Positions 8,591-57,749 of a stretch of 64,000 nucleotides of DNA are shown here, one piece after another. Origin of the DNA: a virus (taxonomy: Duplodnaviria; Caudoviricetes). Both the position numbers and the translations under genes were made by a program. The notes beneath the pieces were generated by a model. It was given only the letters and a program-made list of their open reading frames with translations, did no database searches and was not told where the DNA came from. The stretch lies in IMG/VR virus record IMGVR_UViG_3300035208_007487; one strand, written 5' to 3'. How positions within the stretch are numbered: position 1 is the stretch's first letter; every line of letters begins with the position of its first letter.

Positions 8591-10142
8591 CAACTGTTCC
8601 ACTAAATGAAATACTAAATGTTAGAATAATTGTGTTACTATCAACAACCGTAATACTAGGAATAATTGTTGAACCCGATGAATTAGTACAATTTACAGTA
8701 ACTGTTTTATTTAAATTATGAATAATTGTTGCAGTAGTTACATTGTATAAAGTAGTTGAATAAGTTGAAGTAATTGTTTTTTCTATTGAATTTACAATAT
8801 TATTATCAGATATCTCAGCAAAATGATCATATGCTAAGTCAACTACTGAACTTACATTAGTAACTCTTAAATTGTCATATACTGAATTAGTACTATCAGA
8901 AGTTTTTTTAGTATCTTTTTTTGAATTAGAAATATTAGTTTCAGCTAATGTTATTTCAGCTTTTTTTTCAACTAATTTTGCACTTAAATTAGTTGTTAAT
9001 TCTTTAACACGTAATGCTGCACTATCATCATCTGATATTGGCAAAAATGAACTTAATTTAGATTTAATTACATTACTTTGAGAAGATTTGATTGCTTCTG
9101 ATTCAATGGCATCTCTAGCTAAAATAGAAGCTCTTCCTCCAGTTAATGTATCTAATTCCTCACATATTACCTTAATTGCCCCTAGAGAAGCATTTGCAAG
9201 GCATGTAGAGTATTCTAATTGTGTTTGGACATACTTGCTAAGTAGACCATCTGGACCGCTTAAACAGTCTTCTAGCATCTCTTTTATTGCTTTAGCTAAA
9301 GATGAATTATTTTTTTTAGCGGAAGCTGGTAATTTTGATAGCATAGATGAAGGCAATTTGCTATCTCCTAAATCACTGTGCCCATTTTGCTTTAATATTT
9401 CGTAAAATTTACTTTCTTTATTTTTTAGAAAATCACTTATTGTAGAACTAGATTCATTGAATAATAATGCAGTATGTCCTGGTTCACTTTCATTTATTAA
9501 TGAGCTATCATTAAATTCAATATGTAACTCAGTATTTGATTGTTTTATAAAAATTCCACTTAAATTGAAATAATCACTATTATTAATATAAAACCAATTT
9601 ACTATATTATAAACATAGTCGAAATATTCAGATTTAGTTCTAATATCTATAGCTAATCCTCTTTGATGAACTGAGGTATTAGGCTTGGCCCAAGTATATC
9701 CTAATGAATTTAGTGCGGATTGAATTGAATTGTAATCAAATTCAAATAAATAATTACCATTATATTTTCCTATCAATTCAGGATTTGTTTGTTTTGATTT
9801 GTACTTTGAAAAATTAATATTTGGATTATTATCATATAATAATTTCAATCCTATTTTTGCTTGTAATTCAGGAGGAATATATGCATTTGAAATGTATGTG
9901 CTTTCTGGCATATATCTCCCAACTATACTCCAAAAATCATAATGAAAACTTTTAAGATAAGCTCCATCTAAAATTAAAGGTTGCAATAAAGGATATCTTA
10001 ATGTTTTAATACTATTATTTACACCAGATACTTCATACACTTTAGCATCGCTAATCAGTGAACTATTTCCATTTTGGAAATAACTTAAAGCGCTTGCATT
10101 AAAATATGATAGTGAAAGATCACTGCCCTTTGGATAATTCAT
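8580..10142 (-). CDS. Putative virion protein with a peptidase M15-like domain
   Basis: SVHQRGLAID..LHIE (LAS metallopeptidase pattern), then a coiled-coil and a short C-terminal beta-rich module. Confidence 0.55.
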   Translation of the reverse strand: MNYPKGSDLSLSYFNASALSYFQNGNSSLISDAKVYEVSGVNNSIKTLRYPLLQPLILDGAYLKSFHYDFWSIVGRYMPESTYISNAYIPPELQAKIGLKLLYDNNPNINFSKYKSKQTNPELIGKYNGNYLFEFDYNSIQSALNSLGYTWAKPNTSVHQRGLAIDIRTKSEYFDYVYNIVNWFYINNSDYFNLSGIFIKQSNTELHIEFNDSSLINESEPGHTALLFNESSSTISDFLKNKESKFYEILKQNGHSDLGDSKLPSSMLSKLPASAKKNNSSLAKAIKEMLEDCLSGPDGLLSKYVQTQLEYSTCLANASLGAIKVICEELDTLTGGRASILARDAIESEAIKSSQSNVIKSKLSSFLPISDDDSAALRVKELTTNLSAKLVEKKAEITLAETNISNSKKDTKKTSDSTNSVYDNLRVTNVSSVVDLAYDHFAEISDNNIVNSIEKTITSTYSTTLYNVTTATIIHNLNKTVTVNCTNSSGSTIIPSITVVDSNTIILTFSISFSGTVVIR

Positions 10143-11748
10143 TTAAAGTATTTATTATAGAAAATGTATGGTTTAAAGTAAGAGTTTCTATATTGAATTT
10201 TTTCTTTAAGTAATAACCATGCCTAGCTATATATTGTAGATTAACTCTACTTCTCCACATATTTCCTGTTCTTTTTAAAATTGATAAATCATCTACTAAA
10301 TCATAGATAGTGGCAAAATCCTTAGTTTCATGTAATCTTAATATTCTACCTATTGATTGTACAATTGTTTCATATGAGCGCAAAGATGATGCAAAAATAC
10401 AATTATGTAATTTCTTGATGTTAATACCTGTTGACATTGTTGTATAAGTAGCAACTAATATAACACCTTCTCTATCATTCATTGAAGTAATAATGGCATC
10501 TCTTTTTGTTTTCTTTATGCCACCGTATATTATTTCTGTAGTAAATTGAGGATGATATTTGTTTATATGTTTAACAATATCATCCAATTCACCATTTTCT
10601 ATTTTACTACAAAGAATTAATGTATTTTGTTTAGGTGTTATTTTACCAGAATTTATTAAATTAGATATGGTCCATAATTTTGATTTATTTAATCTTAATA
10701 ATTCAACTTCCTCATCAAATTTTATATCATTTTGCTTCATAAATTTAATGGATTTTAAATCATAAGGTAACATTACTTCAACAATATTTGCTTTAGCCAA
10801 TATTCCTCTATCTTGAAGATCTTTAGTTTCAGCTAATATTATTTTTTTACCAAACGCACCTTCTAAAGTTTTCACATACAAAGGCTCTTCAGGAATCGTC
10901 CCGGTGAATCCTAGTCTGTATTCAGCATTTATGCATGAATTCAATACTCCTAATAATGTTTTACCATCTTTTTTTGCTCTATGCGCTTCATCTAACATAA
11001 CCATATTGAATCTATTACAGAATTCTTTATCTTTTGATAGTAATCCATCAATTGAATTATATACAGCTATCATTACTGGCTTAGTTAATGCATCTGCTTT
11101 TTCAGAGGCAGTAAATTCAGAATCATATAATCCAACATATTTGTCAATATTATTCCATTTATATGATTTAAAATCTCTATACATTTGAGTAACTAATGCT
11201 ACATTTGGAACTAACAATAATACTTTAAAATCTTTATCTTTATTTAAATGCATTAAATATCTTATTAATAGATAAATTAATACACTTTTACCAGATCCAG
11301 TAGGTGATTCAAATAATAGTCTTTTCTTTTTAATAGCTAATTTAAATCCATTAATTTGAAAATCATATGGATTGAATCCATTTAATTTAGCAAAATTATC
11401 AATAAATGAATCTATTTCATCGTAATTAATATTATCTTCTAAAAATGATGTTTTAATATCATCACTAACTTCTACTTCAAATGAAGATGCTTTTAGTAAT
11501 TTAACGGCTTCAGGCACTAAGCCTAATGGCAAAGCTCCATATATTTTTTTAAATACATGTAATTTACCATCATATCTAGTTATTTTTCTATTTTTGTACC
11601 TTTTATCAAATTTATAATTTGGAGTATATATTGCAAAATTACCATCTAAATATGATAATGGATTTGCATAAGTAGATTCTGTTTCTGATCTACCTAACCA
11701 AACAAATTTAGCCCATATATTGTTTAATTTATCTACTCTAACTGGCAC
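10120..11748 (-). CDS. uvsW: SF2 DNA/RNA helicase UvsW
   Basis: PTGSGKS, DEAH, GFTGT, STGINI, QSIGRILR; adjacent to uvsY. Confidence 0.92.
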   Translation of the reverse strand: MPVRVDKLNNIWAKFVWLGRSETESTYANPLSYLDGNFAIYTPNYKFDKRYKNRKITRYDGKLHVFKKIYGALPLGLVPEAVKLLKASSFEVEVSDDIKTSFLEDNINYDEIDSFIDNFAKLNGFNPYDFQINGFKLAIKKKRLLFESPTGSGKSVLIYLLIRYLMHLNKDKDFKVLLLVPNVALVTQMYRDFKSYKWNNIDKYVGLYDSEFTASEKADALTKPVMIAVYNSIDGLLSKDKEFCNRFNMVMLDEAHRAKKDGKTLLGVLNSCINAEYRLGFTGTIPEEPLYVKTLEGAFGKKIILAETKDLQDRGILAKANIVEVMLPYDLKSIKFMKQNDIKFDEEVELLRLNKSKLWTISNLINSGKITPKQNTLILCSKIENGELDDIVKHINKYHPQFTTEIIYGGIKKTKRDAIITSMNDREGVILVATYTTMSTGINIKKLHNCIFASSLRSYETIVQSIGRILRLHETKDFATIYDLVDDLSILKRTGNMWRSRVNLQYIARHGYYLKKKFNIETLTLNHTFSIINTLNELSKGQ

Positions 11749-11778: not shown

Positions 11779-12234
11779 TTAGTATGCCATTAATGAAGTC
11801 TTAATCAATTCAACTTGATTTGATACTTTAGCATTAATGTATTTAAAATACTCTACATAATCCTTAAGTAAATTGTATATTACTTCTAATTTTGAGATAC
11901 TTTCTCGTATTGAAATATATTCACTATCAAGGGCTATTTTTTCAAGCATTTCAGTCTTGTCAATAACTCTATGTTCATTGAAAGTTTCATCATATCTACA
12001 TTTTTGTTTTATTTTATTTTCTATAATATTTAATTTATTTTTTAATTGATTTAATTTTATAGAAGTTCTACCTAATTTTGATAACCATTTATTAAATAGC
12101 AATCCAGTACCTAGATTGTATCTCATTAAATCTTCAATTTTCTCTGGAAGTACACTATCTTTTTCAAATATATTAATGAGATTTTCAAGTTTATATTCTT
12201 CATCAAACATTATCTCAAAATCAGTCTTTTCCAT
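11779..12234 (-). CDS. uvsY: Recombination mediator, UvsY-like
   Basis: Helical 151-aa protein directly upstream of uvsW, as in T4. Confidence 0.65.
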   Translation of the reverse strand: MEKTDFEIMFDEEYKLENLINIFEKDSVLPEKIEDLMRYNLGTGLLFNKWLSKLGRTSIKLNQLKNKLNIIENKIKQKCRYDETFNEHRVIDKTEMLEKIALDSEYISIRESISKLEVIYNLLKDYVEYFKYINAKVSNQVELIKTSLMAY

Positions 12235-12297
12235 TATGTAAATTATAACTATTGTTTAATAGCTATATATAAATTATATATAATTATTTAATAATTC

Positions 12298-12525
12298 AAT
12301 ATGTTCTTTAATAATTATATATACTATAAATTATTCAATATATTGTACGAAGTACTAATAAATTAATCAATAATATATCAATACTTTTAAGATATTTAAC
12401 AATATATATTTAATTCTTTAATATGTTCTTTAATAATTATATATACTATAAATTATTCAATATATTGTACGAAGTACTAATAAATTAATCAATAATATAT
12501 CAATACTTTTAAGATATTTAACAAT
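12298..12525. repeat. Perfect 106-bp AT-rich direct repeat, two copies (12298-12403 and 12420-12525)
   Basis: AATATGTTCTTTAATAATT...GTACGAAGTAC...GATATTTAACAAT is identical in both copies; period 122 bp. Confidence 0.95.
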
Positions 12526-12534
12526 TGGATATAA

Positions 12535-12846
12535 TTTCTCTAATTCCCCCTTCCAGCCCCATTGAGATTTGACGAATCTCAGCTAGAAGAAGTACTTCTC
12601 TACATTACAAAACTTATGTCATTAAGAATTATATGTAACGCCCCCCTTTAGATACTCAGTTGTGATTTCGATGAAATCTAGGAATTTCTCTTCCTAATCA
12701 ACTACCTCTGCCATGCTCCAGTTGTTAAGATATACTTAACAACCTCCCGTAGGCGTATCTACAATGTCTATGAGCCAGCTTCATCAGCTTTGATTTCTCG
12801 TGACTCTCATAAACCTTCCTCCGATTTCTGTTAGCTCGGAAACTCT
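12535..12846 (-). ncRNA. Candidate structured non-coding RNA (~310 nt), family unknown
   Basis: GC-enriched, no long ORF, about 10 nested helices; TGTTATACT promoter at 12861-12853. Confidence 0.55.
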
Positions 12847-12907
12847 AAGCAAAGTATAACAAAAAATTTTGGTTTGATATAATTACTTAGTAGAACTAAA
12901 TAAGTAG

Positions 12908-14251
12908 GTGAGCATGAAACATTTTTTAAAATATAGCACCGAATTAATTGATTTAATTTTAGGTGAATTATCCAATGGAGCTTCAGTTAAAGATTTATCT
13001 AAAAAATATGCAATAGATACTAGACGCATATATGAATGGAAAAACAAGCATAGAAAAAAAGTAGATGTTTCAATTAAACAAGATTTAGAGATTAAAGAAG
13101 AAAACGAAAAAGTAATTACTTCAAATTCTAAAGAATTTTTAACAATTGAAGAAGTATTAAGAAAAAATGGAATATCTCAAGATGAATGGGAAGTTACCAA
13201 TGTAAAGATAAACAATTGGGAAGATTCATCAGGTGAAGTGCATTATCAAAATAAAATAAATTTAATTAAGAAAAATATTAATTTAACTTATGAAGTACCG
13301 GCTCCAATTATAATTAATAATAATTCGCATCAATCATATCGTGCAACTTTAAATACAAATTTAAAATGTGCAATAATTTTACCAGACATTCAAACTGGTT
13401 TTAGACGAGATGTTAATACTGGTAAACTAACTGCTATTCATGATAGAGTTGCAATAGATTTAGCTCTTCAATTAATTAAATATTTAAATCCTCATAGAGT
13501 TGTTTTATTAGGAGATAATTTAGATTTAGCAGAATTTTCAACTAAATATCAAATTTCAAATGATTTTTATTTTACAACTCAAGCATCTCTAGTAGAACTA
13601 GCTTGGTGGCTTGGGCAAATAAGATCAATAAATCCTAACATGCAAATTGATTACACACAAGGTAATCATGAAAAAAGACTTGAAAAATATATAAATGAAA
13701 AAGCAATTGCATTAAGCGGCTTAAAAGCTGCAAATAACCTAAATGGATTTCCTTCAATTAGTGTCGAATCGTTATTAGGTTTAGATTCTTTAAATATTAA
13801 ATGTCATTCATATCCAGAAGGTAAAGTAGCTCTTAATAGTAATTTAATTTGTATACATGGAGAAACAGCAAAAGGCCAATCTGGTGCAACTGTTTCTGAA
13901 TTAGTTAAATCAGCCAGAGTATCAGTAATTCAAGGGCATATACATAGACATGAAGTAGCTGTTAGAACTACTTGGGATGCTTATGATGATTATTATCAAT
14001 ACACTGCTGCATCATTTGGATGTTTATGTAAAATAGCTCCAGGGGTTGTACCTGGAATGAAGATACGCCAAAATTGGCAAAACGGCATTGGTATTGTTTG
14101 GTATGAAGAATCTGGATTAGAACAATTTAGATTAGAATATGTACCAATTATTAATGGTAGAAGCTTATATGATGGAGTAATATTTAATGGTAGTAATGAA
14201 TCAGATATTGTAAAAAACATAGAAAGCGACACTAATTATAAAGTATCATGA
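12908..14251 (+). CDS. Calcineurin-like metallophosphoesterase with an N-terminal HTH
   Basis: PDIQ, LGDNLD, GNHE, IHG, GHIH; HTH-like GASVKDLSKKYAIDTRRIYEW. Confidence 0.85.
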   Translation: MSMKHFLKYSTELIDLILGELSNGASVKDLSKKYAIDTRRIYEWKNKHRKKVDVSIKQDLEIKEENEKVITSNSKEFLTIEEVLRKNGISQDEWEVTNVKINNWEDSSGEVHYQNKINLIKKNINLTYEVPAPIIINNNSHQSYRATLNTNLKCAIILPDIQTGFRRDVNTGKLTAIHDRVAIDLALQLIKYLNPHRVVLLGDNLDLAEFSTKYQISNDFYFTTQASLVELAWWLGQIRSINPNMQIDYTQGNHEKRLEKYINEKAIALSGLKAANNLNGFPSISVESLLGLDSLNIKCHSYPEGKVALNSNLICIHGETAKGQSGATVSELVKSARVSVIQGHIHRHEVAVRTTWDAYDDYYQYTAASFGCLCKIAPGVVPGMKIRQNWQNGIGIVWYEESGLEQFRLEYVPIINGRSLYDGVIFNGSNESDIVKNIESDTNYKVS

Positions 14252-17866: not shown

Positions 17867-18748
17867 ATGAACGACGAATTAGACATTAATGAAAGTTTAA
17901 ATGAAGAAGATAATGTAATTGAGGATATCTTATCAGAGATAGATTTAATATGCCCTAAGCGAAAAGCCCCCAAAATAGCTAAAAAAGTTAAACGTGAATA
18001 TGTAAATCCAGTTGAATTACGTGAAGAAATATTGAAGCATATCTTTAATAAAAAGATAAATGAAGATTATGTTATGGATAAGAAATTAGCTGTAATGTGC
18101 ATGAAAATTATTGATGAATTATTTGAAAAAGGGAATTTTAGAGGGTATCATAGTGGTTGGAAATATGAAATGAAATCCAAGGCATATGAGAACTTAATTA
18201 GATACATACATCAATATGATAGTGAATTCGTAGAAAAACCTGACTTTTTTATTAATTGGATTTATAGAGTACACACTCAATTTATTATTGATTTTTTTGT
18301 ATCTAAAGATTTAAGTTTTGATGCATTTAAGGATACATTAATTGATGTTAAAAAAAGATTCATAAAAAAAGCTAAAGATCCTAACAAAATAATCAAAGAT
18401 ACCTATAAAAAAGTTACTGCATCTGATTTTTCAGCATTTTTATCATCTAAAGGATTGGATTATGATGTAGATAAATTTAAATCATATCTATTTGAAATGC
18501 ATCCAGATTTACAAGAACAGTTTGAAGAATATAAATTAAGAAACGCTTTTAATTATGTTACTATGATGGTTTATAGATCAGCTCAACATGTAATTAAAAA
18601 TGAAAAAAAGAATAAAGAAGATAATCAAAGACTAGATGAAGCTATATTATATAGAACAGATGATTTTGATGAAGATGCAATTGAACAAGATAATAGATAT
18701 ATAACTTTTGATGAGAATAAATTAGATTATGGTGGATTTGAAATCTAA
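17867..18748 (+). CDS. Late-transcription sigma factor, gp55-like, with a ~100-aa insertion
   Basis: YVNPVEL..NFRGY..EMKSKAYENLIRYIHQYD and NAFNYVTMMVYRS..IKNEKK match gp55 blocks; near gp46/gp47. Confidence 0.8.
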   Translation: MNDELDINESLNEEDNVIEDILSEIDLICPKRKAPKIAKKVKREYVNPVELREEILKHIFNKKINEDYVMDKKLAVMCMKIIDELFEKGNFRGYHSGWKYEMKSKAYENLIRYIHQYDSEFVEKPDFFINWIYRVHTQFIIDFFVSKDLSFDAFKDTLIDVKKRFIKKAKDPNKIIKDTYKKVTASDFSAFLSSKGLDYDVDKFKSYLFEMHPDLQEQFEEYKLRNAFNYVTMMVYRSAQHVIKNEKKNKEDNQRLDEAILYRTDDFDEDAIEQDNRYITFDENKLDYGGFEI

Positions 18749-19416: not shown

Positions 19417-20496
19417 ATGGGAAATAAAATAGCCATAGTTGGCGATCCTCATATTGGGAAAAAATCAATTGAACAAGTTAAAAAAGATAAATTATTATTT
19501 TCTCAAGAAATCTTTTTTAATAATTTTTATAATTTCTGCATTGAAAATGATATAAATGAAATAATTTGGACAGGCGACATTTTTGACACTAATCAAGCAA
19601 TTGATTCATTTATATTACAATATGTAGTTGAATTATTTAAAATAAAATTTGGTGAGATGAGACATTATGTTATATTAGGAAATCATTGCCTTTATAACAA
19701 AGACAGCTTAAAAGTATCAGCATTATCTTGTATAGAGCATTTGCCAAATGTTAATGTATATAGAAAACCTACTAAAGTTAATCTATTAGGACATAATTTC
19801 TTATTTGTACCATATTTAGTTAGTTCAATTTATTCAAAGTTTGCAGATAATATTAAAAAACTTGGTTCACTTAATGAAATAATAGTAGGTCATTTTAATA
19901 TTATAGGGGCAAAAATGGAAAACGGCTTTCCTAGTCAATTTGGACTTAATATGAATGACCTATTAAATAATGTTAAATTAGTTATTAGCGGGCATTATCA
20001 TAATGTATCTCAATATATTAGAGGGCCGAATAAAATACAATATGTAGGTAGTCCATATCAATTAACTTTTGGGGATAGTAGACAAAATAGAGGTCATTGG
20101 ACTTTAGATGATAATCTTAATTTAGAATTTTTTGAAAATAAATCTAGTTATACTTTTTTAAAGATACAATCTGAGGAAATAGATAATTATAGTAATCTAA
20201 GTGATTCTTTTGTAATATGTGAATATCCTGCTTCTATATCAGAAGAGGATTTATTTACTTTGAATAAAAAAATAGAAAAACTTAATCCTATCTCGTACAA
20301 AGCTGAACCTAGAAATTTAGAGAATATTGAAGAATTAGCTTCTGAAAATGATGATAAAACAATTAGTGAAATGAGCGATGCCATAAACGTAGGTGATATT
20401 GTAAAAGTTTGCGAAGTATATATGAATGTTGAGCCTCCACCTGATAAAGCGGCGGTTATTAAAATAATTAATGATATAAAAGATAAAATAAAATAA
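19417..20496 (+). CDS. Recombination nuclease gp47 (Mre11/SbcD-like)
   Basis: GDPHIG, GDIFD, GNH, GHF, SGHYH, YVGSPYQLTFGD. Confidence 0.92.
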   Translation: MGNKIAIVGDPHIGKKSIEQVKKDKLLFSQEIFFNNFYNFCIENDINEIIWTGDIFDTNQAIDSFILQYVVELFKIKFGEMRHYVILGNHCLYNKDSLKVSALSCIEHLPNVNVYRKPTKVNLLGHNFLFVPYLVSSIYSKFADNIKKLGSLNEIIVGHFNIIGAKMENGFPSQFGLNMNDLLNNVKLVISGHYHNVSQYIRGPNKIQYVGSPYQLTFGDSRQNRGHWTLDDNLNLEFFENKSSYTFLKIQSEEIDNYSNLSDSFVICEYPASISEEDLFTLNKKIEKLNPISYKAEPRNLENIEELASENDDKTISEMSDAINVGDIVKVCEVYMNVEPPPDKAAVIKIINDIKDKIK

Positions 20497-21985: not shown

Positions 21986-24900
21986 ATGTTTAAGAATATC
22001 TATGTAGATAAGTATAAAAATACTTTTAAAATTTGGAATACTGAAGATAAAGTTATTGAAAGTAAATTTCAATGCCGTTCTTGGGTAGAAAATCCTGGCA
22101 TAGATAGTCCATATAAAACGATATATGGTGTTCCGGTTATGCCGGTATTTAAGAACTATAAAGATGAATATCTAGATAGAACAGACGGCAATCTTAGGCA
22201 TGAAATAGATATTCAGCCTGAAATTAGAATATTAAGTGAATATTATGAGAAAGAAAAAGATTTAGATTTCGATATTAGTGATTTTAATATAATGTCATTT
22301 GATATTGAAACTGAAATTGGTTGCGGATTCCCTGAGCCATCTGAAGCCAAAATGAAAGTGAATCTTATTAGCTGCTATTGCACAAAGCAGCAAAAATATA
22401 TGATTTTTGGATTGCATCCAATAGATGATCAAAGATTTCATAGTTTAATTATTGAAAAAAATAAAATATATCAAGAGCAATTTCCTGATATTAATATTAC
22501 TGATAATTATACATATGTTTGCGCATATGAGGATGAAACTAGACTTTTAAATGATTTTTTTAAGTATGTAGAAAAAGCTCATCCTGACATCTATACAGGT
22601 TGGAACTGTATTGCCAAAAACTCAAGTCTATGGCTGCAAGATAGAATAATTGAAATTAAAGATTCATCATCTGGAGATAATACTTTCATTGATGGCAATA
22701 TTATCAAAACAGCTAATACTGGTTTTAAAAAAGCTTATAAAATAGAAACAGTAAATGGCTATTCAATCACTTCATCAGGTGAACATATATTTCCAATCAA
22801 ATATATTAAGGAAGGAAAATATTGCAATAATGTATCTAAATCTTTATTAAATAAGGACTGTAAAGTATCTGAATTAATTGATTTATCTAAAGAAAATAGA
22901 TTATTTTTAAAAGTAGATATTAGAAATAATACTAATAAAAAATATACATATAGGGATTTGTTAATATATGCACTAATATCTGGTCGAAATAGTAAATTAG
23001 ATATATTAATACCTGAACCTATATATACTAAGAATAGGAAAAAATTAAATGCTAATTATTCGTATAATAAAGCTAAACAATATCCTTTTAAATTTTCAGT
23101 AAATAATTGCAGAAAATTAGTAAATATTAGCGACTCTGAATTAATAGATTCTATTAATTCAATTGATGAAGCTGTGGTATTAATAGATAAAAGTAATGCT
23201 ACTATTAATTTAAATGAAATAATTCCTGATGATATTTTTAAGTTAATGGGATTAATATATACTGATGGTAGCTATTGCAGCAAGCATAAAGAATTTAGTT
23301 TTTATAATACTGATGAGCAGATATTAGATTGGGTGCTCAATTGTTTGCATTCAAATAAATTATCAAACACTAATTCATTAAGTAATGGTCATTTTTGCAA
23401 AAGAATACGTTGCACTAATTCTGCTAAAAATAATTTAATAAAAACATTAATATATAATGAAGACAAAAAAGATATTGATTTAAGTAATTTATCTAGAATA
23501 GCCTATTCTCAATTTTGCGCAATGTTTTCTGGATTAATTGACGGAGATGGATGGATTTCTAAAAAGAATTCAGCTATCGGATTTTGTAATTATAATAATA
23601 ATGACATTAATAAAATAGCTGAATTGCTACAATGGAATGGTGTATTATGCGGAGTTCATAAAAATAAAATACATATATCAAATAAATCTGTTAATACAAA
23701 GTTTATAAATTCTTTATCGTTAGTTGGTAAAAAAAGAGATTTAATAAGTAATATTAATCTAGTTGACAATAAGAATACTAAATCAAAATTATTAGATTAT
23801 ATTTTTTACGAAAATTATTACTATGTTAAGATTGATTCAATAACAGCAGTTGATTCAGTTGAAATGGTTGATATAGAAACTGAATCGCATTATTTTAATA
23901 CCAATTATGGAATTAAAACTCATAATTGTAACGCTTTTGACTTGCCATATTTGGTAAATAGAGCTAAAAATCTAGGAATGTATGAATATTTACTATTATC
24001 TCCAGTAAAAAAAGTATATTTAAGAAAATCCCGTAATGAAGAATATAATACTGAGGAATTGATTCCAGTAATTAGTGGAGTTTCTTGTATTGACTATTTA
24101 ACATTATATAAGCATTTCAATAAAGGTAGCCAAAAAGAAAGTTGGAAACTTGATTTTATTGCTAATGAAGAATTAGATGGATTAGGTAAAGTTAAATTAG
24201 GTGATACTGGATTAAATCTTGCTAAAAAAGATTGGACTGCTTTTTCTTTATATAACTTAGTAGATACGGTATTAATTACACTATTAGAACCTAGACTTCA
24301 AATGATCGAAACTCTTATAGGGACATGTTCAGAGGCTAGAATTCCCCTTGAATTCTTCTTCACTCCTAAAAAAGTGACGTTAGGATTTATGCTAACATAT
24401 ATGCACAGAAAAGGGTTGGTAATTCCATTTACTAAACCTGCGGTAAAAGAAAAATATGAGGGTGCCTATATTAAGATGAATCCAGGACCCTATAGGAATG
24501 TGTCATCATTAGATGCGAAATCAATGTATCCATCTATAATGATATCTTGTAATATTTCACCTGAAACTAAAGTAATATCTGATAAACCAATACCTGGATA
24601 TAGTAGATCAATTATTCCAAATATTTATTACAATAATGAAAAAAGAGGCATTATTCCTGAAATTGTTGCTTATATGGTTGATACTAGAGATGAATATAAA
24701 AAGCAACAAAAAATATATTCAAATCCAGAAAGACCTGAATATAATAAAACAAAGGCATCTTATTTTAAACGTAAACAGAATGCTTATAAAATATTTGCTA
24801 ACTCAATATATGGACTATTGGGTAATAATAACTTCCAATTCTATGATTTGGATAATGCGGCAACCATTACTGGAATAGGTAATAGGTTAATTCAATATGT

Positions 24901-26029
24901 AATTACTTATTTGAACGTATGGATTGACAATAAACTCGGAACCAATAAAGATTACTTTAATGAATTTGGCGAATTTGCAAATGTAAAAATAAAAGGTGAA
25001 TTAAGTGATACCTATATTAATTCAATACAAGATAATGAGCAAAAAGCTGGGCTGGGTAAATACACTAGATTGGCATTAGCGCATACTGATTCATTCTTCT
25101 TTGATTATAGTGATTTATATGAACCTTTTGAAAATAAAACTAGATCATATGAAGAATATGCAGCAATAAAAGAAAGGTTTAGTAATAAAAATAGCCCGTC
25201 ATTCAACATTCCATTAAAAAAATATTTTGAAGATATGCATGATGAACAATTGGAAAAGATGACTTTTACTGAATTCATGCTTAGATTTAATTATTGTATT
25301 TTTCAAAAAATAATAAACAAGATTACTCAAAGATGGTGCGAAACTTACTCTTATAGAGAAGATCGTATGTATTTCAAATTAGAAAAATGTTGTTCAAATG
25401 TTGTGGCATTAAGCAAAGCTCACTATATATGCTATCTGCAATATGATGAAGGTGATTTATTAATCAGACAGCCTTTTAAAAAGAGATTAAAAGCAGTTGG
25501 AGTTGAGATGATTAAGGCTGATACTCCCTCTTGGTCAAAAGCTAAAATTCTAGAAACTCTAGAGTTTACATTTACTAAAAACAATAAGCAAGAAGTTTCC
25601 AAATTTATAGGAATGCTAAAGAAAGAATATAAAGATCCCGCTAATATATCTAAAATATCTAGGCCGGTTTCGATAAATAGTTTAGGTCCAACCAAAGCCA
25701 ATAGTTTTCCAGCTCCTAGATTAGGGGCAATAAAGTGGAATGCAATTTTATCAGAAGATACTAATTTTTCAAATTATGAGCAAATAAGTGAGGGGACAAA
25801 GGTAAAATGGATTGCAGTAAAGTTGCCAAATAAATTCAATATTCAAGCTATTAGCTACAATAGCGATACTTGGCCTGTTGAATTAAATAGATACTTTAGA
25901 ATTGATTATGAAACACAATTTTACAAAACATTTAGACGCCCATTAGAGAAAATTATGGAATGTTATGGATGGGGCAATGTTTTTGATGGAAACGTAGATT
26001 CAATAAGAAGGTTCTTCGCACCAAAATAA
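21986..26029 (+). CDS. Family B DNA polymerase (gp43-like) containing an intein
   Basis: ExoI FDIET, ExoII TGWN/CNAFDLPY, ExoIII YNLVD; motif A DAKSMYPS, motif B KIFANSIYG, motif C HTDS. Confidence 0.95.
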   Translation: MFKNIYVDKYKNTFKIWNTEDKVIESKFQCRSWVENPGIDSPYKTIYGVPVMPVFKNYKDEYLDRTDGNLRHEIDIQPEIRILSEYYEKEKDLDFDISDFNIMSFDIETEIGCGFPEPSEAKMKVNLISCYCTKQQKYMIFGLHPIDDQRFHSLIIEKNKIYQEQFPDINITDNYTYVCAYEDETRLLNDFFKYVEKAHPDIYTGWNCIAKNSSLWLQDRIIEIKDSSSGDNTFIDGNIIKTANTGFKKAYKIETVNGYSITSSGEHIFPIKYIKEGKYCNNVSKSLLNKDCKVSELIDLSKENRLFLKVDIRNNTNKKYTYRDLLIYALISGRNSKLDILIPEPIYTKNRKKLNANYSYNKAKQYPFKFSVNNCRKLVNISDSELIDSINSIDEAVVLIDKSNATINLNEIIPDDIFKLMGLIYTDGSYCSKHKEFSFYNTDEQILDWVLNCLHSNKLSNTNSLSNGHFCKRIRCTNSAKNNLIKTLIYNEDKKDIDLSNLSRIAYSQFCAMFSGLIDGDGWISKKNSAIGFCNYNNNDINKIAELLQWNGVLCGVHKNKIHISNKSVNTKFINSLSLVGKKRDLISNINLVDNKNTKSKLLDYIFYENYYYVKIDSITAVDSVEMVDIETESHYFNTNYGIKTHNCNAFDLPYLVNRAKNLGMYEYLLLSPVKKVYLRKSRNEEYNTEELIPVISGVSCIDYLTLYKHFNKGSQKESWKLDFIANEELDGLGKVKLGDTGLNLAKKDWTAFSLYNLVDTVLITLLEPRLQMIETLIGTCSEARIPLEFFFTPKKVTLGFMLTYMHRKGLVIPFTKPAVKEKYEGAYIKMNPGPYRNVSSLDAKSMYPSIMISCNISPETKVISDKPIPGYSRSIIPNIYYNNEKRGIIPEIVAYMVDTRDEYKKQQKIYSNPERPEYNKTKASYFKRKQNAYKIFANSIYGLLGNNNFQFYDLDNAATITGIGNRLIQYVITYLNVWIDNKLGTNKDYFNEFGEFANVKIKGELSDTYINSIQDNEQKAGLGKYTRLALAHTDSFFFDYSDLYEPFENKTRSYEEYAAIKERFSNKNSPSFNIPLKKYFEDMHDEQLEKMTFTEFMLRFNYCIFQKIINKITQRWCETYSYREDRMYFKLEKCCSNVVALSKAHYICYLQYDEGDLLIRQPFKKRLKAVGVEMIKADTPSWSKAKILETLEFTFTKNNKQEVSKFIGMLKKEYKDPANISKISRPVSINSLGPTKANSFPAPRLGAIKWNAILSEDTNFSNYEQISEGTKVKWIAVKLPNKFNIQAISYNSDTWPVELNRYFRIDYETQFYKTFRRPLEKIMECYGWGNVFDGNVDSIRRFFAPK
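22607..23926 (+). mobile_element. Intein with LAGLIDADG homing endonuclease (440 aa)
   Basis: Starts CIAKNS; block B SSGEHIF; GLIYTDGS and GLIDGDG; ends DIE..KTHN with +1 Cys. Confidence 0.95.
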
Positions 26030-33573: not shown

Positions 33574-34752
33574 TTGAGAGCTACAAATTCTACTTTACTT
33601 AAAACTTCTAGCATTAGATACTATGATAAAAAAATAAAGCAATGCTCTTTATTTACTAAAGAAGAAGAAATAAGTATTTTTACGTTAATGTTTAATATTA
33701 AAAAAAACATATGCAATATACTATTAAATGATATTAATATATTCAATAAATTTAAAAAAATAGCTAGCGAATATTTAGATAATGACAATTTAATGGATTT
33801 TATTTTATTTGATACTGATTTTTGTAAAACTTCAGATTTAGAGGAAATTGTTGATTTTTACGAAACAGCAACTAACTCAATTATATTATTAGAAAAATAC
33901 GAAGATACAAAAGATTATACTAATTTGATTTATTTTAGTAATGAAGCTTTTAATAGTTTAATTTGCTTATTATCAAATGAAGAAAGAGAAAAATATAACA
34001 TAGATAGCTTATTAAAAATAATTGATTCAATTAGGGATAGAATAATTGAACATAATTTAGCAATGGCAGTTGAACTAGCATTAAAATATAAAAACACTAT
34101 ACAAATCTCATTAGATGATGCAATACAGGGCGCAATGATTGGATTATCTATTGCTGTTGATAAGTTCAACCCTTTTATAAAAACTAAATTGTCAACCTCG
34201 GCTTATTCTTGGATATTCCAAGGTATTCAAAGACTAAATGATAATACTTGTGAATTAATACAAACTCCATGTAATATCATTGAACAAAGTAAGAAAAATA
34301 ATAAAATAATAAATGACTTATTAAAAAGCAAAGGATCGTTTCCTAGCGCAGATGAAATATGCGAAGCTGCCGGAAATGATTCATATCTAGTATCTATTAA
34401 AAGATATGATTCATTTGATTCAGTGGATGCAAATAATATTCAGTTATGCGATAAGATAAAAGATCCAAATATTGCAGATAATACTACTATTTTAGAATAT
34501 AATAAACTTAAAAATAAAATGAAAGATATTATTAATTCTTTGGATGATAAAGAAAAAGAAATAATTGAATTAATGTTTGGTTATAATAATAAAGAACCGT
34601 TAAGCAATAAAGCAATAATGGATAAATTAAGCATAGATAATTATTCTTTTAACAAATTAAGAACCATTGCTTTAAATAAAGTTAAAGATTTAGTTGAAGA
34701 AGAATTTGAATTCGACAATTGGAGAGAAATTTTTGAAAGCGAGGAGTTATAA
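33574..34752 (+). CDS. Sigma70-family RNA polymerase sigma factor, divergent
   Basis: Region 1.2 LFTKEEE; region 2 HNLAMAV..DAIQGAMIGLSIAVDKFN..LSTSAYSWI; region 4 LDDKEKEII; GAGGTG SD with TTG start. Confidence 0.85.
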   Translation: MRATNSTLLKTSSIRYYDKKIKQCSLFTKEEEISIFTLMFNIKKNICNILLNDINIFNKFKKIASEYLDNDNLMDFILFDTDFCKTSDLEEIVDFYETATNSIILLEKYEDTKDYTNLIYFSNEAFNSLICLLSNEEREKYNIDSLLKIIDSIRDRIIEHNLAMAVELALKYKNTIQISLDDAIQGAMIGLSIAVDKFNPFIKTKLSTSAYSWIFQGIQRLNDNTCELIQTPCNIIEQSKKNNKIINDLLKSKGSFPSADEICEAAGNDSYLVSIKRYDSFDSVDANNIQLCDKIKDPNIADNTTILEYNKLKNKMKDIINSLDDKEKEIIELMFGYNNKEPLSNKAIMDKLSIDNYSFNKLRTIALNKVKDLVEEEFEFDNWREIFESEEL

Positions 34753-43195: not shown

Positions 43196-44335
43196 TTACT
43201 TAATTTTCTTGCTATATGCTGTGGCAGTTGCTACATTCTTTTTTTCTTTATCTAAATTATCAATATCTCTAAAATTGCTTTGCATTTTTCCATAATCAGA
43301 TGATGTTTGGTATGGTGTATTGATAGTTTTTAATTTATCCTTAATATCTTCTTTTCCAAAAGCTATTTCTGTTGCAGTTTTTTCAGTATTAGTTATTGCT
43401 TTTTTAATTAAATTAGGTTTTAAATCATCTAAATTAGATTCTATAGTGAAAACTATTTTATTAATTAATTCATTTATCTTTTTAATATTATTAGCTTCAT
43501 TTTTATTGTATAATATTCCAATATTAATTGTTTTAACTCTTCCATCAACCTTTGTATTAATATCAAATCCAAATTTATATAAATTAGTCAATTTTTCAAA
43601 GTTCCAATCTTGGTTGTTTGAAAATCCAGTAGATAATTGTCTTGTTATATCATTTAATTTATCATTCCATTCCCCAATATTTAATTCAGTGTTATTAAAA
43701 TCAGAAGATGAACTTGGATTTAAATATCCATTTTCCATATAAGTAATTTTAGGAGGATCATATAATGTGTCTAAATTAGATACAAATGATTTTTTAAATA
43801 ATTCACCTGATTCAACTTTAGAATTTAAATAATCTATTATATTTAAATTATATAAAGCTACAAAATAAAAATAATGTCTGTATATAGCTGTAATTTTTCT
43901 GTATTGGAAGTCATCAGTTGTTCTATAATTAGCTGTATCACTTTTACCACCTGATAGATTTCTATATTCTATGGCGATATTAGTTGCAACTTTTTCAATT
44001 AAAGTAATTACGTTTTTTTGCAATTCAGATAATACTGCTAAACTTGTTTTAGCCTTATTTGACATAGCATATTGAGAGAAATAATTAATGATTACATTCC
44101 ATAAATCCATATTAGATAATTTTGTGCCAGCTAATTTAATATTTTCATTAGCCCCCATATATGAAAATTCTTCATTAGATTTAGTATATTCATTTAATAT
44201 TCTTAATGCTTCATCTTGACTAGCTGTATTGATTTTAGGTAAATTGATTTTTTCAGGGGCTTTAGTAGTAGGCTCATCTACGGTAGATGTTTCTTCTAAT
44301 AAGTAATATCTCCCCTTATATATTAATTCATTCAT
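43196..44335 (-). CDS. Hypothetical late protein (379 aa)
   Basis: ATAAATA 5 nt upstream; N-terminal LLEE. Confidence 0.7.
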   Translation of the reverse strand: MNELIYKGRYYLLEETSTVDEPTTKAPEKINLPKINTASQDEALRILNEYTKSNEEFSYMGANENIKLAGTKLSNMDLWNVIINYFSQYAMSNKAKTSLAVLSELQKNVITLIEKVATNIAIEYRNLSGGKSDTANYRTTDDFQYRKITAIYRHYFYFVALYNLNIIDYLNSKVESGELFKKSFVSNLDTLYDPPKITYMENGYLNPSSSSDFNNTELNIGEWNDKLNDITRQLSTGFSNNQDWNFEKLTNLYKFGFDINTKVDGRVKTINIGILYNKNEANNIKKINELINKIVFTIESNLDDLKPNLIKKAITNTEKTATEIAFGKEDIKDKLKTINTPYQTSSDYGKMQSNFRDIDNLDKEKKNVATATAYSKKIK

Positions 44336-44343
44336 ATTATTAT

Positions 44344-45771
44344 TTATGGTTCAGGTGGAGTAATCATCTCATCGAACGATGTAGTATTAGTTGAATATTT
44401 TATTGCTTGAGAAATATCAATAACACCTCTAGTTGTTTTTACAAAATCTCTATTAGGGGGAGTAATCATTTCTTCAAATATTGTCATGCTATTTGCAATA
44501 GTTTTTGCAGTATCAATATCATTTATTAATTTAGTTGGATCAATTCCTAAATCGCCAATCAAACCATGCTCATTTATTTCAAATCGTATATCAGTATAAG
44601 CAGAAGAAGTTTTATTAATTTCTTCGGCTATTTTACTTTCAGAAATATTAGATAAAGTATTATTATATACACTATCACTAGAATCAGACATAGTTAATTC
44701 AACTAAATCAAAATCATCTTTAGTTGGCAAATAATCGGTTGGCATTATATATATCGTACTAGTAGAGATAGTAATCTTTTCTTCAAATTCATTATAGTAA
44801 TAGAAATAAGTATTACCAGAATCATCTTCATAAAATGTTAAACTTCCACTATTAACAATATTATTATTTTCATCAAATGTATAGCTATATGCTTCATCAT
44901 ATAATATTTGAAATAATTGTTTGTTATTATAATCGCCTAATATTGAATAATAAATAATAGCTTCTTTTAGTGAATATTTGTTATTTTGTGCCCACGTTAT
45001 TAATGAAATAATAGTGTATTGTTTTTTTAAATTAATTTCACATTTTAGCTTCCATAAACTTAAATAATCTTCTTCAACAATTTCTAGATCATCTGATAGA
45101 TAAGTATTTCCAGTATAGGGTATTTCATTATCTAAAACAGTAAGTATATCATAATTATCATAAATTGTATTAAGAAAATCATCTCTCATAGTAGATATTT
45201 CATTTGGAGCTAATCCAGGATGCCATTCCCAATGAGAAAAATTAGAATACCCCGAAAATAATCCACCCCAATATATAACATATGGATCATCAACATATTT
45301 TTTTAATAAATCATTAACATCTGCTTTTACATTATAGATTATACTAGGATATACTCCAAATATTTTTACAACATTGCCATCCAATAAGTTTGCACTAAAC
45401 CAATCCTGACAAGCTTTAATAAAAGTAGTAGCAGATCCATCATCAAAATTTAAAGATGTTTTTATATAATCATTAGTGGAACTTGCATCAATTATTTGGT
45501 CAGATGTTTTATTGTAAACATTTATAGATATTGCATTACCATATAAATACCAGCTTAATCCATTTTTTCTATCTTCAAATAATGTAGTAATTTTTTTCTC
45601 ACAATACCAAGATCGTTTAGTACGAACAATATCATATGCATAAGTTGGATTATTGGCAACCCAATAATCTAAAAATTTAATAAGATGATTAACAATAGGA
45701 ATAAAAGCGCGTTTTAATTCGCTTATTGCTACGCTAGTTTCATTATATATTTTAGGTAAAGAACTATCCAT
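44344..45771 (-). CDS. Virion protein with a degenerate peptidase M15-like domain
   Basis: SWYLYGNAISI (compare SxHxxGxAxD) and WGGLF..SHWE. Confidence 0.5.
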   Translation of the reverse strand: MDSSLPKIYNETSVAISELKRAFIPIVNHLIKFLDYWVANNPTYAYDIVRTKRSWYCEKKITTLFEDRKNGLSWYLYGNAISINVYNKTSDQIIDASSTNDYIKTSLNFDDGSATTFIKACQDWFSANLLDGNVVKIFGVYPSIIYNVKADVNDLLKKYVDDPYVIYWGGLFSGYSNFSHWEWHPGLAPNEISTMRDDFLNTIYDNYDILTVLDNEIPYTGNTYLSDDLEIVEEDYLSLWKLKCEINLKKQYTIISLITWAQNNKYSLKEAIIYYSILGDYNNKQLFQILYDEAYSYTFDENNNIVNSGSLTFYEDDSGNTYFYYYNEFEEKITISTSTIYIMPTDYLPTKDDFDLVELTMSDSSDSVYNNTLSNISESKIAEEINKTSSAYTDIRFEINEHGLIGDLGIDPTKLINDIDTAKTIANSMTIFEEMITPPNRDFVKTTRGVIDISQAIKYSTNTTSFDEMITPPEP

Positions 45772-46234
45772 TTAATTCGCTTATTTTGCCATGAACCCAA
45801 TTAACGAATTCAGCTAATGAGGTTTTAGGGTCGTCTTGTGAAATGCTGTCTAATTTAGTCCAAATGTCATCTGAAAACATTTTAAACTTATCTTCATCTA
45901 CATCATTTATGCCCAATCTTGTGAAAAATGAAGATACATATTCTTTAATATTATCTTGATCGAGCATATCAGCAGTCATTATTTCTATTAAATTATGAAT
46001 AGCTGGATCATTATCTATATAACTATTAAGTACTTTACCATTTAAAAATATATCAGAATTTTTAACAGTAGATTCTTCAGGAGGCGGCGCAATTTGAACA
46101 TTACTATTGTTTGGTTCATTAGTTGAATCATCGGTAGGTGCAGGCGTTTCATCAGGTGCATCATCTGCTTCAAATATTCCAGTGACAATATTCATAAAGT
46201 CATCATTTAAATTATTATTAGTAAAAATATCCAT
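45764..46234 (-). CDS. Hypothetical acidic late protein
   Basis: CTAAATA 6 nt upstream. Confidence 0.7.
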   Translation of the reverse strand: MDIFTNNNLNDDFMNIVTGIFEADDAPDETPAPTDDSTNEPNNSNVQIAPPPEESTVKNSDIFLNGKVLNSYIDNDPAIHNLIEIMTADMLDQDNIKEYVSSFFTRLGINDVDEDKFKMFSDDIWTKLDSISQDDPKTSLAEFVNWVHGKISELNG

Positions 46235-46254
46235 ATATGTTATTTAGATAAAAT

Positions 46255-46281
46255 AAAAAAGGAGTTGCTAACAACTCCTTT
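46255..46281 (-). terminator. Intrinsic terminator
   Basis: AAAGGAGTTG..CAACTCCTTT stem with a T run on the minus strand. Confidence 0.85.
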
Positions 46282-46307
46282 CTATTAACCAACTAATTAA
46301 TAATTAA

Positions 46308-47717
46308 TTATCTTCCTTCTCTAATTATTCTTTTAGCTTCCTCTAAAAAGCTTTTAGCTTTATTTTCTACTGATTCTCTAACTACAGCAGCTTTAACTTG
46401 TGGAGTTACTGCTTTCTGAGCAGGAGCTTTTTTAGGAGTAACTGGTTTAGGAATTCCAGACGTAACAGGAATGGTTTCTTGAGATTTTCCGACATCACGT
46501 TTATCTTTAGTGAAACCTGGATTTACTTTATTGACTTCTGTTTCATTTTCAGCTTGCTCTTTAGTCTGAGGAGATACTTTCTTAGGTGCTGAAGCTAATG
46601 CTCTTAATTCACCTAATTTATATCCTGGTTTTGAAGTCTTAGGAGTTGCTTTTAATTGAAAGTCTGGATGTTGAGCACCATCATTTGCTTTAGGATCTCC
46701 ACCTTCAACAAATTTATTATTGTACTCACCAAATAATCCAATTGATTCAAAAACAGCTTCATTTTTTCCAGCTAAAGATTTAACTAATTCTTTTAATTCA
46801 TCAATCTCAGATTTCAATCCTTCTAAAGTAGCTTCTCCGCCTTCTGGAGCGCCTAATGCTTCCGAAGGTATTTCCTCATCACCTGATCCACTAACAACCT
46901 CTACAGGCTCTACCTCGTCAGCAGTGACTACTTTAATAGTATCTTCATCGTCATCTACGTTAGGAATACCGTGTTCACCATGTTCTCCACATTCAGCGCA
47001 AACACCTTCATTAGTAGATTCTTCCTCTTCTTCAGGAACTTCGGATGTTTCAACTGGATTACCTTGGGTACCGTCTTCATCACCAGCTTCTTCCGAACTT
47101 GGATCTGAATCTTCAGTTAATTTTTCCTTCTCTTCTTCTGATTTTTCTTCAGCAGGAGTTTCGCTAGCTTCATGAGAGGCATCTTCTTCTGAATTTTCTT
47201 CAGGAGTGCCTTCATTATTCTCAGCATTCTCTTCTGGAATCTGCCCACCATTTTCAAGGCCAAGATCTAAGGATTGTTTACAATATTCAATTATTGCATT
47301 CTTTTTAGCTTTTAATAATTCATTCTCTTCAACAGGAGTTGATACACTATCTTGTTCAGCTTCGCTTAAATAAGCACTAGTATTAGCAACTTCTTCTAAA
47401 ATCATCTCTAAAGCTGGTTCAGAAATGGATTCACCACTAATTTCATCAAGCATATCTTGCAAATTGCGTCTAATAATTGCCTTATCTTCATCAGATAATT
47501 CAATATCCTTTGAATCATAGTGAACTGGACTTTCAATTCCATTCTCCTGATCATCTAGGTCAACAGTATTATTCAAATCCTCTATTGAGAAGGGATCTGA
47601 AGAAGCTCCTGCTGCTTCGGTTACTGCTGATTTAGCGTCTTGTTTTCTTTGCTGATCTATTGACTCAACAAGAGCTAAAATATTTTCAGTATCTTTCATT
47701 GTGTTTAAATATGACAT
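46308..47717 (-). CDS. Highly acidic low-complexity protein, probable prohead core/internal protein
   Basis: E/D-rich with many (L/V/F)xE sites; AAGGAG SD, tandem late motifs and its own terminator. Confidence 0.7.
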   Translation of the reverse strand: MSYLNTMKDTENILALVESIDQQRKQDAKSAVTEAAGASSDPFSIEDLNNTVDLDDQENGIESPVHYDSKDIELSDEDKAIIRRNLQDMLDEISGESISEPALEMILEEVANTSAYLSEAEQDSVSTPVEENELLKAKKNAIIEYCKQSLDLGLENGGQIPEENAENNEGTPEENSEEDASHEASETPAEEKSEEEKEKLTEDSDPSSEEAGDEDGTQGNPVETSEVPEEEEESTNEGVCAECGEHGEHGIPNVDDDEDTIKVVTADEVEPVEVVSGSGDEEIPSEALGAPEGGEATLEGLKSEIDELKELVKSLAGKNEAVFESIGLFGEYNNKFVEGGDPKANDGAQHPDFQLKATPKTSKPGYKLGELRALASAPKKVSPQTKEQAENETEVNKVNPGFTKDKRDVGKSQETIPVTSGIPKPVTPKKAPAQKAVTPQVKAAVVRESVENKAKSFLEEAKRIIREGR

Positions 47718-47777
47718 ATCAATCTCCTTATTTCTATTTAGTTATTTATGAATTTTAAGTACATTTTTTATAATTAA

Positions 47778-48365
47778 TTAAATGTATTCCCCAATTATTT
47801 CGTTAATATTATCTGGCTTATTATAAATAAAGAATTCATCGAATTTAAAAGCTGCATCAAATGTAACAGGCTCATCAGAATTGAATACTTGATTAAGCTG
47901 TCCTAATGTTTCAATGAATACTCTTTTAAATCTAAAAATAGTTTTAACCTTATTGTTATTATTCATTAAACATATATCTGCATATGGGCAAAATGCTTGT
48001 TTAGCATCCCAATGTTTCATGTCTGGGGTATTTTTATCTGTACGATAAGTTGTTCTTTTATATACATCTAACCAATCATATAATAGTAAATAACTATCTA
48101 AATCTTCATCTGCAATAAAAGTAACTTGCAAAGATACTGAGCTAAAATCAGTAACTGCTGAAGTTGGTACAACAGTTGTTGCACCTAAGAATCTATCATA
48201 TTGCATTTCTGCTTCAATTTCAGGAACAGTATATTCTCTAATATTACATTGAATTGATGTTGTAGATAATGTATCATCTACAATTATTGGTAATTTAGAA
48301 AAAACTAATACTCCAGTACCTTGAACTAACGGATTAAATATTTTATTTGGTAAAGCACCTTGCAT
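47778..48365 (-). CDS. Tail-tube-fold protein (gp3 tail terminator / gp19-like)
   Basis: LQVTFIADEDLDSYLLLYDW..FRFKRVF..L..TFDAAFKFD. Confidence 0.75.
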   Translation of the reverse strand: MQGALPNKIFNPLVQGTGVLVFSKLPIIVDDTLSTTSIQCNIREYTVPEIEAEMQYDRFLGATTVVPTSAVTDFSSVSLQVTFIADEDLDSYLLLYDWLDVYKRTTYRTDKNTPDMKHWDAKQAFCPYADICLMNNNNKVKTIFRFKRVFIETLGQLNQVFNSDEPVTFDAAFKFDEFFIYNKPDNINEIIGEYI

Positions 48366-48366
48366 A

Positions 48367-51564: not shown

Positions 51565-51573
51565 GCATAATAT

Positions 51574-56147: not shown

Positions 56148-56168
56148 ATAACATATTTATCAATATTA

Positions 56169-57734: not shown

Positions 57735-57749
57735 ACTAAATATTTATAG
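57735..57749. promoter_or_regulatory. Overlapping divergent late promoters in a 15-bp gap
   Basis: CTAAATA (plus, 57736-57742) and TATAAATA (minus, 57748-57741), 7 and 6 nt from their ATGs. Confidence 0.7.

Follow-up and report, generated by a model that had tools for sequence, protein, structure and literature searches.

In bacteriophage T4, the origin oriF, or ori(uvsY), comprises a promoter and an A+T-rich unwinding element; a persistent R-loop forms, RNase H makes the primer, and UvsW unwinds the hybrid (PMC3016281). The origin oriE carries an early-mode promoter and iterons, the active T4 origins are located where transcription diverges, and the rules of R-loop formation at T4-type origins are listed as an open question (PMC3016281). 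An intergenic element adjoining uvsY was analyzed here in the virus record IMGVR_UViG_3300035208_007487, within a stretch of 64,000 nt (the window) that corresponds to positions 32001–96000 of contig C18 (212,780 bp, 29% GC) from a mixed metagenomic bin. The comparative evidence indicates that the element, flagged by an initial annotation of this DNA, is a real gene for a folded non-coding RNA of about 320 nt (12527–12846, minus strand) that forms a new family, with 13 distinct homologues, covariation, a strand test in its favor, and no Rfam match. The RNA family is new, and the locus resembles a known kind of origin.

Three further kinds of RNA are relevant for comparison. ColE1 RNA II is a pre-primer of several hundred nucleotides, in which folding and a G-rich segment govern a persistent RNA:DNA hybrid and from which RNase H makes the primer. 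Purine- or G-rich RNA with unusually stable hybrids also marks the primer end in the mitochondrial light-strand-promoter primer (the G-run of CSB II) and in the retroviral polypurine-tract primers. The large phage RNAs GOLLD and ROOL, roughly 580–800 nt in size, are multi-helix RNAs supported by covariation, with tertiary-type motifs and no known function.

The locus shares with T4 oriF(uvsY) a position directly upstream of uvsY, at a point of transcription divergence surrounded by replication and recombination genes. As at oriF and oriE, a promoter is directed into an A+T-rich, easily unwound segment, and RNase H and UvsW are encoded nearby in the surrounding T4-type gene set, as the initial annotation had reported; the direct repeats and the early sigma-70-type promoter recall oriE. 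However, the locus is not homologous to T4 in sequence, and whereas the minimal T4 origins measure about 100 bp and have the unwinding element right after the promoter, a conserved RNA lies in between here, so that the A+T-rich element is about 320 nt from the promoter and not adjacent to it. No MotA box was seen by eye at −30, and no Pfam hit to MotA or AsiA was obtained in the bin, the control genomes likewise giving none. A folded RNA with a G/purine-rich 3′ end is present and may form a hybrid as a primer of the ColE1 RNA II type does, but it has no homology to RNA II, belongs to a phage with a T4-type replisome instead of depending on Pol I, and holds its G-rich segment inside a covarying helix (P5, described below). 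No conserved plus-strand promoter, as for an RNA I-like antisense transcript, is present within the RNA gene. The sequence GGGGGGUAAGGGGGG in group B of the homologues resembles the two-run layout of CSB II by analogy only, as the G-runs here are paired within P5. The RNA has the general features of a large structured phage RNA, being non-coding, phage-borne, and supported by compensatory changes; it differs from GOLLD and ROOL in its smaller size, the absence of an Rfam match, its restriction to one phage clade, and its fixed single locus by uvsY instead of near tRNAs.

Relatives were found via the neighboring metallophosphoesterase protein and their contigs were fetched; IMG/VR, JGI metagenomes, and GTDB contigs were scanned. 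With nhmmer, 13 distinct copies of the RNA island were recovered on contigs of up to 306 kb, all located between uvsY–uvsW and the same metallophosphoesterase gene. They comprise group A (the window, L002, L004, L054, and L055), group B (L007, L008, and L009), and group C (L012, L013, L014, L018, and L052), with identities of 54–89% within groups and about 40% between them; the length from the promoter to the end of conservation is 320–335 nt in every copy. A nucleotide search of a phage collection with the region and its 12-kb flank gave no match and no close cultured phage, no relative came from a search of IMG/VR with a single protein, and a DNA pattern scan of IMG/VR with one RNA motif returned only contigs already known. 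Four IMG/VR pattern matches to the G-run motif were rejected by nhmmer as chance. Neither the RNA nor the neighboring protein was detected in 61 related metagenome-assembled genomes or in 400 genomes of the phylum. In distant metallophosphoesterase relatives (28–39% identity), the upstream genes are co-oriented and there is no long intergenic island; since these carriers lack the intergenic gap, the RNA was judged to be clade-restricted. It is kept by one clade of uncultured, deep-branching T4-like jumbo phages at the point where uvsY–uvsW and the replisome-recombination genes diverge.

The single-sequence fold had a z-score of about −3 on both strands. Since this is only modestly better than shuffled sequences, the case for a structured RNA rests on comparison. 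The MAFFT cross-group alignments of P1, P3a, and P4 were too poor to serve as a seed, and the comparison relied on consensus folds within groups and on transferring a structure from one group to another. The covariation among homologues that the initial annotation had proposed to look for was found. The group A consensus fold contains 64 pairs, with 94.6% of cells paired compared with 36–47% when the 3′ partners were slid by 1–3 columns, and 34 of the 64 pairs changed on both sides against 7–12 in the slid controls. None of 500 column shuffles of group A matched any of the observed measures. Between groups A and C, the long-range helix P3 showed changes on both sides in 8 of 10 pairs. The structure derived from group A only, when transferred to group C, had 73.8% of cells paired (38–49% in the slid controls), and independent predictions for groups A and C agreed on 32 identical pairs despite partial misalignment.

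The description of the locus as a GC-enriched non-coding island was borne out: the GC content of the island is 33–38% compared with 12–25% in the surroundings, and no open reading frame (ORF) of at least 40 amino acids (aa) lies inside it. No frame is open across all family members under standard or reassigned stops, and a protein-coding reading was rejected for this reason. The consensus folding energies were more favorable on the minus than on the plus strand in group A (−44.6 vs. −25.0 kcal/mol), group B (−76.4 vs. −41.9 kcal/mol), and group C (−88.4 vs. −50.8 kcal/mol). An excess of G-U over A-C cells was confined to the minus strand, with 38 vs. 6 cells in group A, 45 vs. 2 in group B, and 68 vs. 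4 in group C. From the covariation, the folding energies, this bias, and the lack of a family-wide frame, the element was concluded to be an RNA read from the minus strand.

The predicted promoter of the RNA is its own sigma-70-type extended −10 element, TGTTATACT (12853–12861, minus strand), which the initial annotation had already pointed out together with the minus-strand orientation. Its pattern, TGnTAnnnT, is conserved at the same distance from the RNA in all group A and B homologues, with a T-run before it, and the strand test agrees with this orientation. In group C, the −10 element is TAGTAT or TACTAT without the TG and stands back-to-back with the promoter of the neighboring gene. The earlier limits of 12535–12861 were refined: with the predicted transcription start near 12846 kept, the gene spans 12846–12527, as the sequence conservation stops sharply near 12527. 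A plus-strand TATAAT at 12527–12535, at the 3′ end of the RNA, is not conserved. The RNA is single-copy in the genome bin.

All helices named beforehand are real, being present in the sequence and in the minus-strand minimum-free-energy fold. They are described below in the 5′ to 3′ direction of the RNA, with all coordinates on the minus strand. P1 (12820–12840; TCCGA/TCGGA in the DNA) is a UCCGA/UCGGA hairpin with an 11-nt loop, and 5 of its 5 pairs changed on both sides in group A. The loop that closes P1 differs by group, being large and A-rich in A, T-loop-like (UUNAAAU) in B, and a GNRA tetraloop in C; such swapping of loop modules is typical of compact, tertiary-folded RNAs. The P2 stem (12766–12815; TATGAG/CTCATA), with 5 of 9 pairs changed on both sides in group A, surrounds P2a (12792–12799), which has a GNNA-type loop, and P2b (12777–12789; AGCT/AGCT), an AGCU-GAUGA-AGCU pentaloop hairpin. 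Groups A and C share GANGA as the loop of P2b, and the helices of the P2 region were also predicted independently in group C.

The P3 domain (12649–12761) is formed by the long-range UAGAUAC/GUAUCUA helix (TAGATAC/GTATCTA), which surrounds P3a (12720–12744; GTTGTTAAG/CTTAACAAC) and the three-way P3b (12657–12705; AGTTG/CAACT, with TAGGAA/TTCCTA and GATTTC/GAAATC). Changes on both sides were observed in 10 of the 15 pairs of P3a. The hairpins of P3b are P3b1 (12679–12696), with a GAGAAA loop, and P3b2 (12664–12678); a hairpin with a GAGA(A/C)A loop was found in all three groups. An unpaired G-run, GGGGGG (12641–12646), separates P3 from P4; GGGG(G) is invariant at this junction in groups A and C, and AGGGA is found in group B. 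The two-part hairpin P4 (12605–12638; TTACA/TGTAA) has an outer UUACA/UGUAA stem, an inner CUUA/UAAG stem, and the loop AUGACA. It is present in the minimum-free-energy folds of all members, its inner stem (helix 9) covaries, and its loop is (A/U)UGACA in all of group A. The nesting of P2 and P3 differs in group B, where the stem that follows P1 is not closed until past the hairpin with the GAGAAA loop, and group B was not forced onto the A/C structural model.

The conserved AAGUAC and P5 follow (12547–12597), the pyrimidine strand CUUCUUCUAGC pairing with the purine strand GCUGGAAGGGG around the hairpin P5a (12563–12581; TGAGATT/AATCTCA). In P5 (helix 10), 5 of 10 pairs changed on both sides, and G-U pairs are numerous. 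An equivalent helix was seen in groups B and C, and its G-rich strand is invariant within group B. The RNA ends in a purine-rich tail, GAAUUAGAGAAAUUAUAUCC (12527–12546), which carries the family motif GAG...RYRYCY and reaches the end of conservation; in two group A members, the 3′ end is a pure purine run of 29–30 nt. Pairing partners for this tail were sought at the 5′ end, at the P2/P3 junction, and in the P3a loop GUAUAU. This yielded only a closing helix of 3 bp, GGA/UCC (helix 2), which is weak and changes on one side only, and a low-complexity loop–tail pairing in group A.

Directly downstream of the RNA on the minus strand, as the initial annotation had noted, lies an AT-rich spacer (12235–12526, no strand assigned; 12% GC), a candidate DNA unwinding element or iteron array that contains a 122-nt tandem duplication (12280–12523). 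The RNA–uvsY spacer is 288 nt long in the window. At sizes of 150, 250, and 300 bp, no other segment of the 212.8-kb contig is as AT-rich or as unstable, with a GC content over 250 bp of 11.6% (17.2% in the next lowest) and a stacking energy per 200 bp of −187 kcal/mol, compared with −203 kcal/mol in the next window and a contig mean of −235 kcal/mol. The spacers of the homologues measure 107–508 nt, each with its own unrelated tandem or iteron-like repeats. Four Logan contigs (L005, L006, L007, and L012) end within the spacer just beyond the RNA. The possibility that they mark genome termini was rejected, since every break lies within a tandem repeat and the site is continuous in an ENA assembly of the same phage; the tandem repeats are the reason why several de Bruijn contigs break there.

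Each of the two 122-nt repeats in the window carries a promoter-like TTGATT-17-TACAAT site aimed at uvsY (12342–12370 and 12464–12492, minus strand), overlapped by a mini-palindrome, GTAC-TTC-GTAC (12345–12355 and 12467–12477, minus strand). Judging from these motifs, uvsY may be transcribed from its own pair of tandem promoters within the AT-rich block. GC-clamped mini-palindromes of the form NNNC-TYC-GNNN number 6 in 1.55 kb of group A spacers, against 0.028 per kb per strand contig-wide, which is a more than 100-fold enrichment. The versions in the window, L002, L054, and L055 are GTAC-TTC-GTAC, GTGC-TCC-GCAC, ACCC-TTC-GGGT, and ATGC-TTC-GCAT; the TYC is always on the RNA-sense strand, and the arms vary between phages with the hairpin potential kept. 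A relative of these elements in group B is TTGAT-GCTTCG-ATCAA. The other strand of the mini-palindromes, C-GRA-G, resembles the very stable DNA mini-hairpins of the d(GCGAAGC) type.

The order of these elements suggests a role in replication initiation: the RNA may be a structured origin transcript or primer whose 3′ end seeds an R-loop. This reading became more plausible after the analysis and is the likeliest of those weighed, although somewhat more doubtful than not. Under it, the RNA would be the structured 5′ body of the transcript of a transcription-primed origin of the oriF(uvsY)/oriE type. The host RNA polymerase would initiate at the conserved promoter, make the folded RNA, and, with no terminator in most members, continue into the AT-rich spacer with its repeats, where the DNA of the genome melts most readily. 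A simple scan for intrinsic terminators gave none from the RNA to uvsY in the window, and a further scan gave none in 7 of 9 loci; L013 has a weaker terminator-like hairpin 3′ of the RNA. The purine/G-rich last 35 nt or so of the RNA, where the hybrid is calculated to be more stable than the DNA duplex, would nucleate or anchor an R-loop, which would then extend into the unwinding element. RNase H of the phage would trim this hybrid into a primer for the leading strand, and the hybrid would be removed later by UvsW, as happens in T4. The folded body of the RNA would set the start of the hybrid or recruit replication factors, as the folding of ColE1 RNA II does.

The energetics of the 3′ end are consistent with such an origin transcript. 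In the RNA and up to 700 nt downstream, the 25-nt window that most favors an RNA:DNA hybrid lies at RNA positions 285–302 in 12 of 13 members, and the same window is second-best in the remaining one (L054). It consists of the P5 3′ strand and the purine tail, at the border with the AT-rich block, and its RNA:DNA hybrid is 7–13.5 kcal/mol more stable than the DNA duplex, as estimated from nearest-neighbor energies for hybrids and for DNA. The locus lines up its promoter, the conserved folded RNA whose 3′ end is hybrid-prone, and the weakest duplex of the genome, and this arrangement is conserved across three diverged groups; it offers a directly testable model of how origin priming in a phage could be programmed by RNA structure. 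In a bolder version, a dedicated, tertiary-folded RNA of about 320 nt would be the built-in primer or organizer of the main replication origin of this T4-like clade, its fold placing the purine-rich 3′ segment such that an R-loop is seeded in the unwinding element next to it. This version is rather doubtful; if true, it would make the RNA the first structured one at a phage origin, with a ColE1-like logic within a T4-type replisome.

Several points weigh against an origin transcript or primer, beginning with the dependence of the hybrid estimate on the nearest-neighbor values used. The G-runs turned out not to be free tracts but to form the 3′ strand of the covarying P5, so the G-rich 3′ segment cannot be regarded as simply available for DNA invasion. 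The cumulative GC skew, proposed earlier as a check, has a minimum at the locus that is only local and tracks gene orientation, the global minimum being elsewhere; because of this confounding, the skew was rejected as origin evidence. Group C spacers are less AT-rich (28–32% GC), and a good terminator-like hairpin lies directly 3′ of the RNA in L002. The T4 origins work without a folded RNA. The swappable loop modules (GNRA, T-loop-like, and A-rich), together with the strict length, are typical of globular RNAs or ribonucleoprotein scaffolds and go beyond the needs of priming. Finally, all members come from one clade, and the adjacency to uvsY could be mere inherited synteny.

The strongest rival is a free-standing, trans-acting structured RNA (ribozyme-like or a scaffold for a ribonucleoprotein with a phage or host protein) that is unrelated to replication initiation and merely shares the intergenic region. 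Such an RNA of unrelated function is nearly as likely as an origin transcript or primer. It would account for the own conserved promoter, the constant 320–335 nt despite the low between-group identity, the peripheral loop modules swapped between groups, and the conserved unpaired motifs (the G-run, AAGUAC, and the GAGAAA and GANGA loops). Large phage RNAs without a known function, such as GOLLD and ROOL, also exist. The hairpin right after the RNA in L002 fits an independent transcript, whereas the lack of a terminator in 7 of 9 loci does not. No partner gene is evident, and the aim into an unwinding-type spacer as well as the hybrid-prone 3′ end would have to be coincidences kept in three groups. 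Whatever its role, the RNA extends the short list of ornate phage RNAs by a large, well-supported family whose tertiary-type modules are swappable.

The RNA might also act in cis as a 5′ leader of the uvsY–uvsW mRNA, controlling read-through, stability, or timing, with the AT-rich repeats serving as operator or promoter arrays. It lies upstream of uvsY on the same strand, usually with no terminator between them, and each 122-nt repeat holds a palindrome-overlapped TTGATT-17-TACAAT site. However, uvsY lies anywhere between 107 and 508 nt away from the RNA, the sequence of the spacer shows no conservation, and uvsY apparently has its own promoters in the spacer. A length of about 320 nt with many helices far exceeds that of the known leaders of such type, and no alternative terminator/antiterminator pairing was found. 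A leader is considered improbable.

Very little favors a divergent member of a described family missed by the models, such as RNase P RNA, tmRNA, a tRNA-like or Y-RNA-like element, a group I or II intron fragment, GOLLD or ROOL, or Polynucleobacter-1. The P1 loop of group B is similar to a tRNA T-arm (GGGGUUCAAAUCCC), but the T-loop-like hairpin occurs in this group only, with other loops in groups A and C; several short strings in the RNA loosely resemble conserved regions of RNase P RNA. A search of the 64-kb window against Rfam 15 at the gathering score gave no match, the region 12100–13000 gave only microRNA/small-RNA noise (E 2–5) with E up to 10, and seven homologous loci gave nothing over the RNA with E up to 1. 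ARAGORN found no tRNA or tmRNA gene in the window, and a search of the literature for an RNA of this kind brought up nothing relevant. The initial designation of the RNA as unrecognized therefore stands. The notion that the locus is not an RNA at all, being either an element acting at the DNA level or a gene for a small or recoded protein, is scarcely credible, as the long stop-free plus-strand frames in some group C members do not extend to a family-wide open frame under any stop reassignment, compensatory substitutions keep the helices, and a strand-specific G-U tolerance is not expected of DNA hairpins or coding sequence.

The RNA gene sits within a 673-nt gap between uvsY on the minus strand and a helix-turn-helix (HTH)-metallophosphoesterase gene on the plus strand. 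Genes left of the gap are transcribed leftward, and the replisome genes on the right are transcribed rightward; this strand switch is surrounded by the genes of RNase H, UvsW, UvsY, gp46, gp47, DNA polymerase, UvsX, gp41, gp32, and primase. The uvsY-like recombination mediator gene (11779–12234, minus strand), downstream of the RNA and the spacer, was assigned to PHROG 231, with the Pfam UvsY domain on the products of the homologues. The UvsW-like helicase gene (10120–11748, minus strand) was recognized by UvsW_N on the homologues. The divergent HTH-metallophosphoesterase gene (12908–14251, plus strand; probable ATG at 12914) has its own promoter, TGATATAAT (12875–12883, plus strand). It was considered as gp47 and rejected, the true SbcD/gp47 homologue being at 19417–20496. 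Its 447-aa product has an N-terminal HTH of the transposase type (weak Pfam hit). The metallophosphoesterase homologues P0004, P0009, P0011, and P0020 (about 760–780 aa) contain an apparent intein with a faint LAGLIDADG match.

The DNA polymerase ORF (21986–26029, plus strand) encodes 1347 aa, of which PHROG polymerase profiles cover residues from about 640 to 1340 only; the N-terminal 640 residues or so are unexplained and could be an extra domain, an intein, or a fusion. Two sigma-type ORFs (33574–34752 and 17867–18748, both plus strand) correspond to a gp55-like late sigma factor plus a sigma-70-family-like factor (PHROG 351). In the region 43196–60068, by the head and portal genes, seven large ORFs (379–1281 aa) had no PHROG match at E 1e-5.

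By gene content, C18 is a phage contig with a gp23-like major capsid protein, a portal protein, and a gp55-like late sigma factor. Its T4-type replication and recombination set comprises an RNase H-like 5′-3′ exonuclease, UvsW, UvsY, gp46, gp47, DNA polymerase, UvsX, a gp41-like helicase, gp32, and primase. The major capsid protein is at most about 30% identical to that of any sequenced phage. In bin G000, contigs of about 26–30% GC are mixed with contigs of about 40–44% GC, and its size of 2.36 Mb compares with 1.0–2.0 Mb in the genus relatives; C18, and perhaps further low-GC contigs, is phage DNA binned with a bacterium.

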